Origin: Deltaproteobacteria bacterium
GTDB lineage: Bacteria > UBA10199 > SPLOWO2-01-44-7
Reading direction: 5' to 3'
DNA: 60,985 nt
NCBI GenBank assembly: GCA_030648035.1
Contig: JAUSII010000116.1
Span: 1-60,985, forward strand
The notes beneath the pieces were generated by a model that saw nothing but the letters and a program-made list of their open reading frames with translations, was not told the DNA's origin and searched no databases. Below, piece by piece: positions 1 to 53,093 of this stretch (its first letter is position 1; every line of letters starts with the position of its first letter). The translations under genes and the position numbers were made by a program.

Positions 1-19
1 CTGGCTGGCTGGCTGGCTG
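1..19. repeat. (CTGG)n tetranucleotide simple repeat inside the RT gene, cut by the window edge
   Basis: ctggctggctggctggctg at positions 1-19. Confidence 0.8.
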
Positions 20-558
20 TGCAAATTATGGGCCATCATGTGATGTGAATCGAGCACTTTCTGAATTAGCCACAAAGTATCCACGCACGCAACTTTTCTT
101 TTGATGAGACGCATTAAAATCTGGCAGTCAATACTCGGAAAATATTTTCGGATGTCGCACTTCAAAACGTAGGCATTTCTTCGGGCAAATTTTTGAAACC
201 GGTCCAATGCCGCATGGGTCCCCTTTTCTTTTCGAGTGGCATAAGAGTCAGAAATAAACGTCGGCTCAAAGATCGGCTCCAAAATATTGTGAATGGCATG
301 GTGCACAACTCTGTCGCGATAAGGGGCGGCACTGATGATTCTCTGTTTGGGTTCGTAAATGGTAAAGTGGTGATATTGGCCAGGTTCATAGCGTTTTAAC
401 GACAAATCTTTATGCAACTGCCACAACTCTTTTTCGAGATAAAAATTAAAACGAGCGACCGGCTTTTTGAACCGCTTGCCTCTTTGAGATAAACGAGAGG
501 CCTTTAGCAAATTTTGAAAAGCAATAATCTGTTCGTAGAGATGGTCGAAGGTTCTCAT
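1..558 (-). CDS. DGR-type reverse transcriptase, N-terminal 186 codons (truncated by window edge; absent from the ORF track)
   Basis: Manual translation from ATG 558, which overlaps the avd stop as ATGA: [20 protein letters not shown]...[54 protein letters not shown]...[15 protein letters not shown]. These are typical N-terminal motifs of DGR/group II-like RTs. The frame is open to position 1, and the YxDD motif lies outside the window. Confidence 0.93.
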   Translation of the reverse strand, partial: [186 protein letters not shown]

Positions 559-899
559 GTTTTGGATTTTTGCTGTTTGAGCCAACCGCCCAACTGCACG
601 CCGATCTCGTTGATCATTTTTGAAATGACTTCGTAACGATGCAGGGGAATGATCTTCAGATCTTTGCACAACCGAACATAATAGCGGGCCTTCTCCAATT
701 TGACATTGGCCTTTTGTAACAAGATTGATTTCTCTTTTGTGAAGCAGGCCTCCAAAAGCAGTTCCAGAATATCAAAACTGATTGATTCAAGCCGTTCGCC
801 CAACTGATACCGTTCGGACCTTGGAAATTTGGCGACTTGAGGAATGAGATAGAGCAGAAAATCGTAGACTCTCGTTATAATTTGTGGAGTTTCTCGCAT
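555..899 (-). CDS. avd: DGR accessory variability determinant (Avd-like four-helix bundle)
   Basis: YDFLLYLIPQVAKFPRSERYQLGERLE...LEKARYYVRLCKDLKII...EIGVQLGGWLK. It lies between the target gene and the RT. ATG 899 is preferred over GTG 929, which falls inside the hairpin. Confidence 0.9.
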   Translation of the reverse strand: MRETPQIITRVYDFLLYLIPQVAKFPRSERYQLGERLESISFDILELLLEACFTKEKSILLQKANVKLEKARYYVRLCKDLKIIPLHRYEVISKMINEIGVQLGGWLKQQKSKT

Positions 900-907
900 A
901 AAAATAT

Positions 908-942
908 CTCGGCCCCATTTGTTTGCCACAAATGGGGCCGAG
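908..942 (-). promoter_or_regulatory. DGR target-recognition hairpin/cruciform downstream of the VR/IMH
   Basis: Perfect 15-bp inverted repeat CTCGGCCCCATTTGT / ACAAATGGGGCCGAG with a GGCAA loop (minus strand), about 25 nt past the target stop codon and after a pyrimidine-rich CTTTTACC repeat tract. Confidence 0.8.
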
Positions 943-967
943 GGTAAAAGGGTAAAAGCAAAAAGGG

Positions 968-1873
968 TTAACTTATAGAGTCCTGGGGCGCAGCCAGCCG
1001 AAAACCCCTATAGTTGCTACGAGACACGGGCTGAAGGAGGTCGCGGCACGACGCGCGCAGGTACCCCGGATTATTGCTGCCCCAGGAGCCGCCGCGCAGA
1101 ACTTTAAAATCACCACTCACAAGGCCTATTGGATCGGTTACGGCTCCTCTTGGATAATCTCCATACCAACTTCTTGTCCATTCCCAAACATTGCCTGTCA
1201 TGTGGCGCAGACCATTAGGCAAAGTCGGATATTTGGAATCATTCACATCGATAGTAGAGCCCGCATTAAAATGAGCCTCGGTTTTGACCAACTTTCCGCT
1301 CGGTGTGGCATATTCGCGCGGTTTTCTCTCTCCACGAACCACACGCGCGGCATATTCCCATTCAGCCTCTTCCGGAAGACGAACGGCATGCAATGCACTA
1401 AAAACAAATGCATCATACCAATTCACATTTATAGCAGGCTGACCGGAACCATCAAAATTTGCGGGGGGAGTGTGATCGGCAATATGAACAAGATTCAATG
1501 CGCCGATTAATCTGGCCGCTCCACCTTTTGCAATTTCTCCCGCATCGGGAATCAACCGATCTAACGAAGATCTGATTTCAGCGGAAGAACTTCCCAAAGC
1601 CAACAATTTTTCCACACCGGTTTGGCCATCGGCTCCAATCAGCGCAAAACGATTGGCTCCCAATGACGCGGCAAATTTGCCGTAGGTTTCGTTGGTAATT
1701 GGATTGCGACCCATTCTGAAATTGGAAACGGTGACCGGATGTTCCGGAGCATCCTCGAAACGACTGGAACCCATTGTAAAAGTTCCTCCTTCGATGGCCA
1801 CCAAACTCGGTGCAATGGTTGCAAAATTTGCGGCGGCCATACCTGCCAAATCGGAACCCATAATCAGTGACAT
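968..1873 (-). CDS. DGR target protein, FGE-sulfatase (CLec-fold) domain
   Basis: GGTFTMGS, P..NVNWYDA, RLPEEAEWEYAAR, NGLRHMTGNVWEW and VLRGGSW...GFRLA motifs; directly upstream of avd and the RT. Confidence 0.92.
   Translation of the reverse strand: MSLIMGSDLAGMAAANFATIAPSLVAIEGGTFTMGSSRFEDAPEHPVTVSNFRMGRNPITNETYGKFAASLGANRFALIGADGQTGVEKLLALGSSSAEIRSSLDRLIPDAGEIAKGGAARLIGALNLVHIADHTPPANFDGSGQPAINVNWYDAFVFSALHAVRLPEEAEWEYAARVVRGERKPREYATPSGKLVKTEAHFNAGSTIDVNDSKYPTLPNGLRHMTGNVWEWTRSWYGDYPRGAVTDPIGLVSGDFKVLRGGSWGSNNPGYLRASCRDLLQPVSRSNYRGFRLAAPQDSIS
975..1102 (-). repeat. DGR variable region (VR), approximate bounds
   Basis: Encodes RGGSWGSNNPGYLRASCRDLLQPVSRSNYRGFRLA. Positions that are usually Asn in such TRs carry NNY codons (GGC AGC AAT AAT, TAC, TGC, GAC CTC CTT, TCT, AGC AAC TAT), as expected from A-mutagenesis of AAY. 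Confidence 0.75.
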
Positions 1874-1888
1874 TGTATCCTCCTTGAT

Positions 1889-1958
1889 TTGTCATTCTGA
1901 GCCGCAGGCGAAGAATCCAGTGGATCAACGGGATCCTTCGCTTCGCTCAGGAGGACAA
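1889..1958. repeat. REP-like imperfect palindrome
   Basis: TTGTCATTCTGAGC...GCGAAGAATCC / GGATCCTTCGC...GCTCAGGAGGACAA arms; resembles a widespread intergenic palindrome family (recalled, not searched). Confidence 0.7.
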
Positions 1959-1983
1959 CATGTTATCATCGTTCACATATTAC

Positions 1984-2010
1984 TTATCGTCACAATGCAG
2001 AAAAAGTTGC
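1984..2010 (-). promoter_or_regulatory. Putative alternative-sigma promoter (GCAAC-N16-CGATAA) for the DGR target gene
   Basis: GCAAC TTTTTCTGCATTGTGA CGATAA; the same 27-bp pattern recurs at 8430, 24064 and 51635. Confidence 0.65.
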
Positions 2011-2121
2011 TTCATCAAACATAAAAATTTTTATGACTTTTTTATAGTGGAGTGTAAAAAGGACTGAAGTGCAAAAATTTCAAATAATTCCGGCTAGTTA
2101 TCTGATGACCGCTTTGTGTTT

Positions 2122-2715
2122 CTAACTCATCTCGCGTCTCTGCTCCAGCGCTTTGGCCAGAGTGGAGGCGTCCAGGTATTCGAGTTCGCCGCCGACGGGG
2201 ATGCCGGAGGCGAGGCGGGTGATGCGCACTCCCAGGGGTTTAAAGAGGCGGGAGAGATAAAATGCGGTGGCGTCACCTTCCACATTGGAGTTGGTCGCCA
2301 GAATCAACTCTTTGGGGCCGCCGTCTTTCAGGCGCTCCAACAATTCCTTCACCTTTAAATCATCGGGGCCGATGCCATCCAACGGGGAGAGAGCGCCGTG
2401 CAAGACATGATAGCGGCCGCGAAAGCTCGATGTCTTTTCGACCGCGGTCACATCGGAGGGCTCTTCCACCACGCAAATCAGATGGGCCTCGCGTCTTGTA
2501 TCAGAGCAGATACGGCACGGGTTTTCCTGCGTGATGTTGCAACAGACCTGGCAGAGTTTTATTTTTTCGTGCAGATCTTTCAGCGCCTCGCTCAAATCCC
2601 TTGAAATTTGTTTGGACGATTTGAGCAGAAAAAAAGCAAGCCGCGTGGCGGTCCGCTCTCCCACTCCGGGCAATTTGCCCAGGGCATAAATCAGTTTGTC
2701 GATGGGGCTGGTCAT
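2122..2715 (-). CDS. recR: Recombination mediator RecR
   Basis: LPGVGERTATRLAF HhH, CQVC..CRIC Zn finger, Toprim domain (VVEE, YHVLHGALSPLDG, GGELEYLD). Confidence 0.97.
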   Translation of the reverse strand: MTSPIDKLIYALGKLPGVGERTATRLAFFLLKSSKQISRDLSEALKDLHEKIKLCQVCCNITQENPCRICSDTRREAHLICVVEEPSDVTAVEKTSSFRGRYHVLHGALSPLDGIGPDDLKVKELLERLKDGGPKELILATNSNVEGDATAFYLSRLFKPLGVRITRLASGIPVGGELEYLDASTLAKALEQRREMS

Positions 2716-4301
2716 TCCTTGTTCTCCACACGCACCTCTTCGACGACCGCGCCGAGAATATTGGCGGCTTCACGGACTGAATCGTGCTTCAAGGCCGCCT
2801 CCTGCAATATTTTTCTGCGCGACTGCGTTTCATCCGGCAGGGGCACGCTGGAAGAAGTGGAATAGACCAGTTTCAATACATAGGGTTTTCCAAAAAATTT
2901 GAGAAAGATCGCCTCGACCTGTTTTTTGCGATCTTCTTCCATAAGCATTTCACCATAAATCGAACCGGTTTCAAAACCGATCTCAATGGCCATGGCCCCC
3001 ATCGAAACCAGACGCCCATGATTGAGAATGGAAATAAGACGCGGATTTTCTTTCTGGAGCCAGACGAGGAACGGGTCCCAAGTTTTGCCTTCGCTCTTTT
3101 CTTCTTTTATTACGGAGGACGTTGGAACAACGGATGGAGAGCTGACGCCCACCCCACCCGATTTGGCGACCCTTTCCAACTTGGCCAGAATCTCTTTGAG
3201 AGGGACCACCTCTGCAATCAGCGTCATCCGCACCAGCAACACATCAAAAAGCATTTTGGGAAACGAGGAACGGGCAATCTCTTCTGCACCCGCATAGGCG
3301 AGCGAAAAAAGCTGGTCGATCTCTTCGGGAGCGGCAAGCGCACTCATCTCTTTTAATGCGCGCACCTCTTCTTTGGCAAGCTCCGCCCAGTCGGGAACGT
3401 CACCCAACGTTTTTACCAGCAGCAAATTTCTAAAACCGGAAACCATATCAAAAGCGAGCCGATTCAAATCGGCCCCGGCCTGATAAAAAAGATGCAACTG
3501 CTCCAGCGCACTTTTCCGGTCTCTATTCAAAACCGCTTTCAACAATCCCCAAAACTGCGTGCGATCAAGAAAGCCGAGCATCGTTTTCAAATTTTCATAA
3601 CCGACGGTTTCACCCGAATAGGCAATCGCCTGATCAAACAGACTCTGCGCATCACGCAGGCTCCCGCCCGCCTCTTGCGCGACAAGGTGCAGAGCGTCGT
3701 CATCTATCGTCACCTTCTCCGACTCGGCGATTTTTTTGAGATCGATGACCAGTTCTCCCACCGGAATTCGTTTGAAGTCATAACGCTGACAGCGCGACAA
3801 AATAGTGGCGGGAATTTTATGGACCTCGGTGGTGGCAAAAATAAAAATCACATGCGGCGGCGGTTCTTCGAGCGTCTTGAGCAGGGCATTGAAGGCGGGA
3901 GCTGAAAGCATGTGGACTTCATCGATGATATAAATTTTGTAGCGGCCTTTGGCGGAAAGATATTTCACCTTTTCGCGAATTCCACGAATATCCTCAACGC
4001 CGTTATTGGAAGCGCCGTCGATCTCCTGCACATCCATCGACCGACCTTCCAGAATATCGACGCACATCGCACACACATTACAAGGTTCTCGGCTTCCAAT
4101 TCCCTTTTCGCAATTGAGCGCCTTTGCCAGAATGCGCGCGACGGTTGTTTTGCCGATGCCGCGTGCGCCGGTAAAAAGATAGGCATGATGAATGCGCCCG
4201 GTGGCCAGTGCGTTCTGCAAGGTCTGCGTGACATGAATCTGCCCGATGACCTCTGCAAAAAGTTGGGGGCGATATTTGCGGGCTAAGACCTGATAAGACA
4301 T
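2712..4301 (-). CDS. dnaX: DNA polymerase III subunit gamma/tau
   Basis: MSYQVLARKYRPQ, GARGIGKTT, IIDEVHML, LLKTLEEPP, SRC motif. Confidence 0.98.
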   Translation of the reverse strand: MSYQVLARKYRPQLFAEVIGQIHVTQTLQNALATGRIHHAYLFTGARGIGKTTVARILAKALNCEKGIGSREPCNVCAMCVDILEGRSMDVQEIDGASNNGVEDIRGIREKVKYLSAKGRYKIYIIDEVHMLSAPAFNALLKTLEEPPPHVIFIFATTEVHKIPATILSRCQRYDFKRIPVGELVIDLKKIAESEKVTIDDDALHLVAQEAGGSLRDAQSLFDQAIAYSGETVGYENLKTMLGFLDRTQFWGLLKAVLNRDRKSALEQLHLFYQAGADLNRLAFDMVSGFRNLLLVKTLGDVPDWAELAKEEVRALKEMSALAAPEEIDQLFSLAYAGAEEIARSSFPKMLFDVLLVRMTLIAEVVPLKEILAKLERVAKSGGVGVSSPSVVPTSSVIKEEKSEGKTWDPFLVWLQKENPRLISILNHGRLVSMGAMAIEIGFETGSIYGEMLMEEDRKKQVEAIFLKFFGKPYVLKLVYSTSSSVPLPDETQSRRKILQEAALKHDSVREAANILGAVVEEVRVENKE

Positions 4302-8871: not shown

Positions 8872-9669
8872 TCATATGCCCAAAGCATCATCGAGTTTGT
8901 GCATTAAAAGACTGGCAAGAACGATAAAATGTTTCGCTCGTTTATCATCGATACTTATATTGGAATGCGCCTTTGGATTTCTTATTCCGGTCATTGAGCC
9001 AGAAAAAATTTGCATAAATCCCACTTGGATATTTTTTCCGTTTTCAGTGGAGAGATCATCAAGACTAATCACGGGATTATTAACCGAAAAAGCACGATTC
9101 ATCAGAGTACTGCCATCAAGGTCATCACCAATTCTCTTTTTTACAATTTTTTTCACACAATCATTGATCTCCTTAAAAGCAGCCTCTACCGAATCAGCAT
9201 AATGTCCGCTTTCAAAGCGAGAGCGGGAAATTCCAATAATGCGTGGATGTACAAGATTCCAAAAATCATATGATTGAATAAGTTGGGATGCATTTGGAAG
9301 ATCCAGCTTCTTCTCTTCCAATCGCTGAATCAAACCTTCCAACATGCTTACCGTTTTGGGAATGCCTGCTGAAAAATTATGCTGATATTCATGATCAGAC
9401 ATTCCGACCGCATGTCCACCAGACCAAATATTGTGATATCGGTGTTCATGAAATTCTGGTGAGTTTTGTCCGAAAACTTCCCTGATTGTTTCTCTGACAT
9501 TCGATTTAACGTTATTTATTTTCTGGTCATCAAAACGAATTTGTTGGGAATTGAGTTCTTGCACTTCTTCAATTCGGCGTTTCAGCTTGGCAATACCGGT
9601 TTCAATTTCACCTACACTTAAAAATGTTTTTGGCTCAATCACTGGTTCCACAATTTTATGTCTTGCCAT
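8872..9669 (-). CDS. TIGR02391-family protein (RM-associated)
   Basis: LVHPRI...RFESGHYADSVEAAFK...DGSTLMNRAFS...GIRNPKAH. Confidence 0.8.
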   Translation of the reverse strand: MARHKIVEPVIEPKTFLSVGEIETGIAKLKRRIEEVQELNSQQIRFDDQKINNVKSNVRETIREVFGQNSPEFHEHRYHNIWSGGHAVGMSDHEYQHNFSAGIPKTVSMLEGLIQRLEEKKLDLPNASQLIQSYDFWNLVHPRIIGISRSRFESGHYADSVEAAFKEINDCVKKIVKKRIGDDLDGSTLMNRAFSVNNPVISLDDLSTENGKNIQVGFMQIFSGSMTGIRNPKAHSNISIDDKRAKHFIVLASLLMHKLDDALGI

Positions 9670-51692: not shown

Positions 51693-53093
51693 ATGGGACG
51701 TCTTCCCTTTATAGTCACCCTCCGCTACGACAATCCTACCGACGACTTTGCCCCCTATGCCCCCCTCCACGACAGCTTCTTTCTCGACTCTTCCATGTCC
51801 ACTCCCGGACAGGGCCGGTTTTCGTTCTGGGGTTACAATCCCAAAATAAAATTTTCATCGCGAGGGGGGTTCGTCACGTTGCAGGGCCACACCACCATCG
51901 GGTCGCCTTATCTCGCACTCAAAGATCTCTATCAAAAAATTGTGAATCTCCCGATGGATCCCTATCTCCCCTTCTCCGGCGGGTTGGTCGGTTTTTTGGG
52001 ATATGAATGGGGCGCCGCACTCGAAAATATTCCGGCGGTCACAAACGGCGACAGCATCTCCACCCCCGATTGCCGCTTTGGTCTCTACGACACGATTGTC
52101 AGCTACGATTATCTGGAGGGGACCTGTTGGGTCTCCTCGTGGGGGCTGGATGAAAATCTGGAATGTGATGAAGATCTCGCCAAAGAGAGAGCGGAAAAAT
52201 TGGCGGAGCATTTGGAGGCAATGAGGAGAATTAAAAGCTATTCATCGGACATCGGACATCGGACATCGAACAATCCGGAATTCCGCTCCTCGTTCAACAA
52301 GGAGAGTTACATACGCGCGGTCGGGCGCGTGATGGATTATCTGCGCGCGGGAGATTGTTATCAGGTGAATCTTTCCCAGCGCTTCATGGCCGCGGCACCC
52401 TTTTCTCCTTGGGAACAATATCTTCGTCTGCGCAAAAATTCTCCGGCACCCTATTCCTCTTTTCTGCAATGCGAATCGTTTCAGATTCTCTCCACATCGC
52501 CCGAATGTTTTCTGCACGCCAAGGCCGATGGCGAAATGGTCACGCGACCGATCAAGGGGACAAGAAAACGGGGAGAAAATCCGATCGAAGATTTGAAATT
52601 GCGCAACGAACTTTTAAACAGTCCCAAAGACAATGCAGAATTGCTGATGATCACCGATCTGGAGCGAAACGATTTCGGGAAAATCTGCGTCCCCGGTTCA
52701 GTCGAGGTGCCGCAACTGCAGGGGATTGAAACATTTGCGCAGGTCCATCATCTCCTCTCGACTGTGAAAGGAAAAAGAAGATCCGACCTCGACGTGATCG
52801 ATTGCCTCGCGGCCCTCTCGCCCGGCGGCTCCATCACCGGCGCCCCAAAAATCCGCTCGATGCAAATTATCCAGGAGCTGGAAACCTGCCCGCGCGGCGT
52901 CTACACCGGCGCCATCGGATGGATCGGCCCCAACAACACCGCCCACTTCAACATCGCCATCCGCACCATGATTCTGCAAGACGCCACCGCCTTCTTCCAC
53001 GCCGGCGGCGGCATCGTCATCGACTCCGACCCAGAAGCCGAATACGAAGAGACCCTCACCAAAGCAAAAGGGATGTTTGAAGCGTTGATTTAA
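51693..53093 (+). CDS. pabB: Aminodeoxychorismate synthase component I
   Basis: GDCYQVNLSQRF, SPECF, RPIKGT, AELLMITDLERND, PGGSITGAPKIR; pabC lies downstream. Confidence 0.9.
   Translation: MGRLPFIVTLRYDNPTDDFAPYAPLHDSFFLDSSMSTPGQGRFSFWGYNPKIKFSSRGGFVTLQGHTTIGSPYLALKDLYQKIVNLPMDPYLPFSGGLVGFLGYEWGAALENIPAVTNGDSISTPDCRFGLYDTIVSYDYLEGTCWVSSWGLDENLECDEDLAKERAEKLAEHLEAMRRIKSYSSDIGHRTSNNPEFRSSFNKESYIRAVGRVMDYLRAGDCYQVNLSQRFMAAAPFSPWEQYLRLRKNSPAPYSSFLQCESFQILSTSPECFLHAKADGEMVTRPIKGTRKRGENPIEDLKLRNELLNSPKDNAELLMITDLERNDFGKICVPGSVEVPQLQGIETFAQVHHLLSTVKGKRRSDLDVIDCLAALSPGGSITGAPKIRSMQIIQELETCPRGVYTGAIGWIGPNNTAHFNIAIRTMILQDATAFFHAGGGIVIDSDPEAEYEETLTKAKGMFEALI

Follow-up and report, generated by a model that had tools for sequence, protein, structure and literature searches.

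The diversity-generating retroelement (DGR) of Bordetella phage BPP-1, arranged as mtd-avd-TR-brt (TR, template repeat), is the prototype of these systems, and from work on it a hairpin or cruciform downstream of the variable repeat (VR) and a boundary of the initiation of mutagenic homing (IMH) type are expected. Here we analyzed a DGR at the start of a 60,985-nucleotide (nt) stretch of DNA, denoted as the window, from a Deltaproteobacteria bacterium (assembly GCA_030648035.1, contig JAUSII010000116.1), whose reverse transcriptase (RT) gene contains a tetranucleotide repeat, (CAGC)n. The locus resembles that of BPP-1 in its RT with IGxxxSQ and YxDD motifs, its Avd, its TR and VR that differ at adenines, the VR at the 3' end of a lectin-fold gene and the hairpin after the VR, whereas it differs in its order avd-RT-TR, its chromosomal position between housekeeping genes and its target of the formylglycine-generating enzyme (FGE) type. 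Among solved proteins, the target is comparable to TvpA of Treponema denticola (2y3c), a DGR variable protein with the same FGE-type C-type-lectin fold, which it matches over residues 148-295. TvpA is a surface lipoprotein, whereas the target shows no signal sequence by eye. The core order of the DGR is the same as that of architecture B2 in the main text of Wu et al. 2018 (PMC5758913). The layout is therefore already known, and the new point lies in the repeat that interrupts the RT. The closest counterparts of the repeat are the tetranucleotide contingency loci of Haemophilus influenzae, which (PMC2651432) likewise have a non-triplet unit in an open reading frame (ORF), polymorphic length, and in-frame and out-of-frame alleles. 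In contrast with those loci, the gene here encodes a mutator enzyme rather than a surface or restriction-modification protein, the hosts are uncultured environmental bacteria, and switching is proposed from the tract sequences of relatives.

The locus is a complete chromosomal DGR that was split by the assembly over two abutting contigs, C53 and C78 (labels beginning with L, C, P and G are working names for the loci, contigs, proteins and genomes compared). The analyzed genome comprises 2.39 Mb in 135 contigs, and because the window is the entire contig C53, the RT is incomplete within it. The elements follow the order target(VR)-hairpin-avd-RT-TR-structured RNA, which is architecture B2, and are located as follows, with coordinates on the window unless C78 is named:
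968..1873, minus strand: target gene, 301 amino acids (aa), a stand-alone FGE-type C-type-lectin-fold protein (Pfam FGE-sulfatase, E 1.4e-38)
978..1102, minus strand: VR, in which the adenine-derived differences span about 1012-1081
943..967, minus strand: pyrimidine-rich spacer between the target stop and the hairpin, read from the sequence, with repeated CTTTTACCC-like motifs
908..942, minus strand: perfect hairpin (arms 908-922 and 928-942; 15-nt arms, 100% complementary, 5-nt loop, T-rich tail)
555..899, minus strand: avd, 114 aa (Pfam bAvd, E 1.1e-19; NCBIfam NF033474 DivGenRetAVD, 106.7 bits against a cut-off of 80)
1..558, minus strand: RT 5' part, codons 1-186 (RVT_1, E 4.4e-8), running off the contig start
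1..19, minus strand, with the rest at C78:10106-10125: (CAGC)n tract in the RT gene, a tandem repeat at both contig ends
C78:10125..9616, minus strand like the RT 5' part: RT 3' part, a 5'-open ORF with IGNLTSQ, YMDD and the RT C-terminus; stop at 9616-9618
C78:9602..9478, same strand as the RT: TR, 13 nt past the RT stop
The target, VR, pyrimidine tract, hairpin, avd and RT named in the initial annotation were all recovered on the minus strand where it had placed them, and the hairpin, which starts 26 nt past the target stop, is as perfect over its 15 bp as it had claimed. The ATGA overlap that it described between avd and the RT is made of the avd stop (557..555) and the RT start codon (558..556), and due to this overlap there is no TR between the two genes. 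The ORF track had not missed the RT, as was supposed there; the gene runs off the contig end instead.

The last 20 nt of C78 and the first 19 nt of C53 consist of the repeat (GCTG)n, which reads (CAGC)n on the coding strand and encodes repeats of the peptide SQPA. The tract is situated between RT codon 180 and motif 4 (IGNLTSQ), in the loop just upstream of motif 4. These two contig ends hold the only tetranucleotide repeats of at least 16 nt in the genome, and no other repeat touches a contig end. With a unit of 4 nt, just one tract length in three is in frame; counting from the RT start and back from the stop, the RT halves are joined in frame only at n = 3, 6, 9 and so on. A plain overlap of the two contig ends would give n = 5, which is out of frame, and the true n may differ from this. 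Among public sequencing runs, window DNA was found only in run X1, possibly the source sample, as Logan contigs, with next to none in X2 and X3. A 195-nt contig of X1 (depth 4.19, compared with 9.05 for its neighbour) extends 66 nt beyond the window start. Elsewhere in the genome, heptanucleotide repeats of one family (CGATGTC / CATCGGA, 3-4 units) are present at window 52243-52268, inside an ORF at 51693-53093, and on at least eight other contigs; since 7 is not divisible by 3, they may likewise shift a reading frame.

Both IGNLTSQ and YMDD lie in the C78 half of the RT, and (I/V/L)GxxxSQ in RT domain 4 is described as a feature of DGR RTs in the text of the DiGReF paper (PMC3521204). The genome has only two RVT_1 matches, covering the complementary profile parts 8-93 and 118-205. 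When the RT halves were compared with solved structures, the window half aligned to residues 7-173 of chain 8ub7_A (E 6.8e-32) and the C78 half to residues 177-315 (E 8.3e-20); the search labels this chain just 'Reverse transcriptase', and we take it to be the RT of the Bordetella phage DGR. The peptide of the tract falls in a gap of this alignment, such that the RT has a tetranucleotide tract where 8ub7_A has no residues. In a structure model of the in-frame homolog L014 (mean pLDDT 89), the only segment below 50 is 177-184, within the tract stretch at about 173-190. A group II intron RT or maturase was rejected as the identity of the gene: with TIGR04416, whose cut-off is 300 bits, the two halves scored 94 and 60 bits, and the best group II intron RTs among solved structures reached E-values of 2.5e-10 and 1.1e-9, 10 to 20 orders of magnitude weaker than 8ub7_A. 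In NCBIfam the RT passes no model, the best one being a group II RT under its cut-off. No solved relative of Avd was found by sequence, and Rfam at its gathering threshold gave no matches in C78 and window 1-2058. Besides these, two 151-nt low-depth Logan contigs of X1 match window 135-321, in the RT 5' half, with 18 and 10 differences, and thus derive from a second, related RT in the same sample.

To place the tract among related RTs, we compiled 93 non-redundant RT loci and scored a repeat at the site when a 4- or 8-nt unit covered at least 16 nt and ended no more than 40 nt before the motif. Such a repeat was present in 25 of the 93 loci. Where both RT halves were long (n = 19), three repeat-bearing loci were in frame, six were shifted by 1 and ten by 2, whereas 66 of the 68 repeat-free loci were in frame, the exceptions being L005 (degenerate tract) and L199 (deletion remnant). 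Three further loci stand apart from these counts: L194, whose frame was misassigned by the 'longest open frame' rule and which is outside the counted set; L106 (tract of 21 nt, shift 2), which matched the DNA pattern, was missed by the protein regular expression and is not among the 19; and L052, a second copy on the contig of L036 that is out of frame without a repeat and was removed as a duplicate. The in-frame tract alleles are L014, L093 and L108. Some cassettes are decayed, namely L194, L195, L199 and L208 (genomes G025, G092 and G030), where internal deletions have either joined the avd start to mid-RT sequence or eliminated the 5' part of the RT, and two of these copies keep long CATC tracts.

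All five close relatives obtained by protein search have their RT halves in different frames exactly at the site, with (CAGC)n in three, (CATCACTC)n in one and a degenerate remnant in one. In 80 homologous loci from named genomes, such tracts were found only in the closest ones. Another 10 metagenome and 10 genome stretches, whose tracts range from 16 to 162 nt, came from scans with a DNA pattern; the (CAGC)n pattern had no matches in viral contigs. Within one RT clade the units are CAGC, CATC, CACT, CAAT, CAGA and CATCACTC, of which CATC, CACT, CAAT and CAGA came from a survey of the host class; all can be written as CANN, and the tract abuts TTGCA in 14 of 15 relatives as well as in the window. 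As the unit varies while the site is fixed, it is the repeat that is kept and not the peptide. In the RT tree, the repeat-bearing loci fall in two clades; that of the window RT has 13 rows with support 99, 11 of them with a repeat, and the second, of Saccharibacteria type, was sampled through the repeat pattern only. The repeat site persists across RTs at about 57-80% identity. Furthermore, 78 other genome stretches have (GA)n at this site, no more than 30 nt upstream of GIPIGNL, and 13 of the 66 usable ones are in frame; these tracts differ from the tetra- or octanucleotide (CANN)n of the avd-RT-TR clade in their dinucleotide unit and in belonging to other RT clades.

Proteins with the tract were likewise found in the protein collection. 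Seven of the 21 best full-length matches were in frame with a tract, and P0001, which is 81% identical to the window RT, reads HSQPALAG at this place, which we read as three units. At least 21 of the 49 best short matches were N-terminal fragments with 4-residue periodic tails. The RT fragments P0122, P0123, P0125, P0131, P0132, P0163 and P0166 end within the repeat peptide. Other assemblies probably break at the tract too, as is the case here.

Length changes were seen between near-identical relatives. L094 and L105 are 99.5% identical over 1437 nt, and their tracts of 31 and 35 nt set different frames; L095 and L099 share 99.7% identity over 5178 nt, and their tracts are changed by +8 and +4 nt. 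For the RT half downstream of the tract, the median pN/pS was 0.32 over 78 pairs with saturated synonymous sites, and the comparison of this genome with L004 gave a dN of 0.12 and a dS of 2.35. As judged from these ratios, the downstream half is under purifying selection. The VR/TR mismatches of out-of-frame loci are mostly specific to adenines, with 16/17 in L109, 16/17 in L017, 19/19 in L095 and 29/29 in L110; non-adenine differences number 0-2 in most of these loci, L007 being an outlier with 19 of 24 mismatches at adenines. An open and constrained downstream half, adenine-specific VR/TR differences, tract variation, the occurrence of in-frame alleles and the position of the tract peptide, in a gap of 8ub7_A and around the low-confidence segment of the L014 model, suggest that the out-of-frame copies are not simply dead.

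The reading that fits these data best, and which we regard as probable, is that (CAGC)n is a slipped-strand on/off switch on the RT. Taken with those of its relatives, the tract has three marks of a contingency locus: a unit that is not a multiple of 3 inside an ORF, length polymorphism between near-identical relatives, and both in-frame and out-of-frame alleles. In line with what is established for DGRs, RT-Avd would reverse-transcribe the TR transcript, which carries a conserved 3' scaffold, and would misincorporate opposite adenines; the resulting cDNA would take the place of the VR at the 3' end of the lectin-fold gene. Slipped-strand mispairing during replication would alter n, by which RT synthesis, and hence hypermutation of the target, would become a heritable and reversible on/off trait, with most cells being off at any time. 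In more general terms, we are inclined, on balance, to see the loop before motif 4 of DGR RTs as an old contingency site maintained by selection, with (CANN)n here and (GA)n in Patescibacteria. Targeted hypermutation would then be phase-variable, with a stochastic and heritable switch set above a mutator, and the cost of rewriting the ligand-binding protein would fall on a subpopulation only.

Several points weigh against a switch. Both contigs of this genome end within the tract, and the tract lengths compared come from assembled contigs of relatives. The near-identical pairs L094/L105 and L095/L099 are out of frame on both sides, and no pair of an in-frame and an out-of-frame allele was seen. 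At 3/19, in-frame alleles are below the one third expected from random phase; L194, L195, L199, L208 and L107 are plainly decayed, and part of the out-of-frame excess may be decay. In addition, the repeat itself served to find the loci that came from the pattern scans, and because the loci are related, their counts are not independent.

If decay is extended to all copies, the repeat would be a mutational hazard only, the out-of-frame copies would be inactivated DGRs on their way to being lost, and this cassette would perhaps be dead. We consider this unlikely, although of the alternatives it keeps the most in its favour. It agrees with the deletions or truncations in the five loci just named and with in-frame alleles being the minority, and an earlier survey ascribed frameshifts in DGR RTs whose VR/TR are intact to inactivation or to errors in sequencing, according to the text of PMC3521204. 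Decay would not lead one to expect that the site persists over the RT divergence given above in spite of the turnover of its unit, that the downstream halves remain open and constrained, that VR/TR differences outside adenines stay at 0-2 in most out-of-frame loci (L007 apart), or that repeat-free relatives are almost never frameshifted. While plain decay accounts for some copies, it does not explain site persistence, unit turnover and downstream constraint.

A second alternative is recoding, in which a slip of RNA polymerase or the ribosome by a single unit within the tract would let out-of-frame alleles yield a low, tuned amount of full-length RT. A tetranucleotide repeat gives the same peptide in all three frames, so a slip would be silent except for the exit frame, and a shift by one unit would restore perfect pairing. 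Recoding would also suit the fact that 16 of the 19 alleles are out of frame, yet have a conserved downstream half and VRs that look recently rewritten. What makes it doubtful, and in our view rather improbable, is that the shift needed is inconstant, with six loci in one direction and ten in the other and a difference even between the 99.5%-identical L094 and L105; the tract contains no classical slippery heptamer, and its lengths change at the DNA level. An assembly artefact, with C53 and C78 not being neighbours or the repeat being made by the assembler, is highly improbable: no junction-spanning read or contig was seen letter by letter, but the genome has no tetranucleotide repeats other than those at the two ends, which also carry the complementary halves of its only RT, and independent assemblies of relatives have the tract inside contigs.

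To our knowledge, the regulation of DGRs is largely unexplained. In literature searches by title and abstract, no report of a repeat switch in a DGR RT was found. The main text of PMC5758913 contains 'frameshift' once, in connection with VR indels, and its supplementary tables may list such RTs. Surveys tend to discard frameshifted RTs or to treat them as dead, as the DiGReF paper did in its text (PMC3521204). If the (CAGC)n tract and its counterparts are switches, many DGRs scored as broken would be merely off, hypermutation would be deployed as bet-hedging, and tract length modulo 3 would be a simple marker of DGR activity state readable from metagenomes. For one hypervariability mechanism to be gated by another would, moreover, be a rarity. 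For the window alone the outcome is more modest, namely a real DGR that is complete across two contigs and has a known layout.

The assignment of the locus to the DGRs was examined further with the TR/VR pair. In a BLAST search of the VR region against the genome, window 978-1102 aligned without gaps to C78:9478-9602 (125 nt, 17 mismatches, E 1e-36). Sixteen of the 17 mismatches pair a TR adenine with another base in the VR (7 G, 6 T and 3 C), and the remaining one is a C/G difference at the 3' edge. By TR base, the differing positions are 16/31 for A, 1/40 for C, 0/33 for G and 0/21 for T; the 31 TR adenines correspond to codon position 1 in 13 cases, to position 2 in 18 and to position 3 in none. 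TR and VR part right after CCCCAG, and the VR ends 8 nt from the target stop codon. The initial annotation had expected the TR downstream of the RT or at another locus and had proposed searching the genome for a VR copy that differs at TR adenines; the copy on C78, just beyond the RT stop, agrees with both. Its identification of the locus as a DGR is borne out by this A-biased pair together with Avd and a DGR-type RT. It had also listed what would speak against a DGR, namely a genome without an A-biased TR, an RT without YxDD, or an affinity to group II introns, and none of the three was found. One Logan contig of X1 spans the VR with no differences, such contigs being ones that drop rare variants.

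Formylglycine-generating enzymes are among the solved sequence relatives of the target, as is Treponema denticola variable protein 1 (2y3c, E 4.1e-11). When its N-terminus was read by eye, no signal sequence was apparent. Two FGE paralogs in the genome were considered as further targets. That on C42 was rejected, as the BLAST search of the VR region against the genome gave no VR-like match there. The FGE-sulfatase paralog on C118 was rejected as a current second target since its differences from the TR are spread over all four bases (A 20/31, C 11/40, G 12/33, T 11/21). The C118 gene (L002:1930-3108, minus strand; region L002:1879-2058) retains the VR 3' end CCCCAGGAC, the CTTTTACCC spacer and the left half of the hairpin, which is interrupted by the start of the next gene, and it looks like a former or orphan DGR target. 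The initial annotation had proposed looking for other genes with the same VR 3' end and hairpin; the C118 gene has the former, but it keeps only half of the hairpin and its mismatches with the TR are not specific to adenines.

An CTTTTACCC-like spacer motif is present in all eight related VR flanks shown (from L109, L006, L007, L015, L017, L018 and L111) plus the C118 remnant. By eye, a hairpin or part of one was seen at the same place in 5 of 8 VR flanks of clade relatives (L109, L006, L007, L017 and the C118 remnant), with differing stems, and none was seen in the flanks of L015 (two flanks), L018 and L111. Conserved CTTTTACCC-like motifs beside variable hairpins may be a clade-specific recognition element for homing. 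L015/L016 (also labeled L202/L207) is a repeat-free clade member with two RT/cassette copies about 5.9 kb apart on one contig; in L015, one TR pairs with two VRs, with 16 of 18 and 19 of 21 mismatches at adenines.

The order avd-RT-TR, which the initial annotation had regarded as unusual, is already catalogued as B2 in the main text of Wu et al. 2018 (PMC5758913) and is shared by all seven clade relatives in which both TR and VR were found. In the closest relative, L109, the target, avd, both RT halves and the TR lie on one contig in the same order. Following the TR, about 195 nt (C78:9482..9288) are conserved in eight clade members, with a consensus fold of 51 pairs, 27 of them with compensatory changes. 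By analogy with known DGRs, where a scaffold follows the TR, this conserved RNA would be that scaffold and have the same role.

On the window, the cassette is adjoined by the following features:
1874..2121, no strand: intergenic region from recR to the target gene, with one copy of a REP-like (repetitive extragenic palindrome) palindromic element at 1891-1917
2122-2715: recR, adjoining the cassette
2712-4301: dnaX, after recR
The genes flanking the cassette on C53 are recR, dnaX, ruvX, yceG and the T2SSE ATPase, and those on C78 are a DUF6036 nucleotidyltransferase, a small GTPase, transaldolase, dap genes and rho. The neighbourhood of recR and dnaX without phage genes, as it had first been described, was confirmed: housekeeping genes lie on both flanks, and no phage genes were found within about 8 kb to each side. 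The DGR may be host-domesticated, as the initial annotation suggested; the distribution of its RT clade is patchy, with 14 of 93 genomes of the host class having it, and recR and dnaX are absent from the 8-kb locus of the closest relative's cassette. The best named relatives of DnaX are only 35-53% identical and carry mixed taxonomic labels; a relative from the same family is filed as 'Deltaproteobacteria bacterium', and the organism is taken here as an uncultured groundwater bacterium. No convincing promoter was found in 1874..2121, where matches were no commoner than in shuffled sequence; promoter and terminator scans in general gave no more matches than shuffled sequence, with the exception of the hairpin itself. 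The REP-like element at 1891-1917 (GTCATTCTGAGC...GAAGAATC) was compared with a reversed control pattern, which had 0 copies in the genome, and the element itself has 9.

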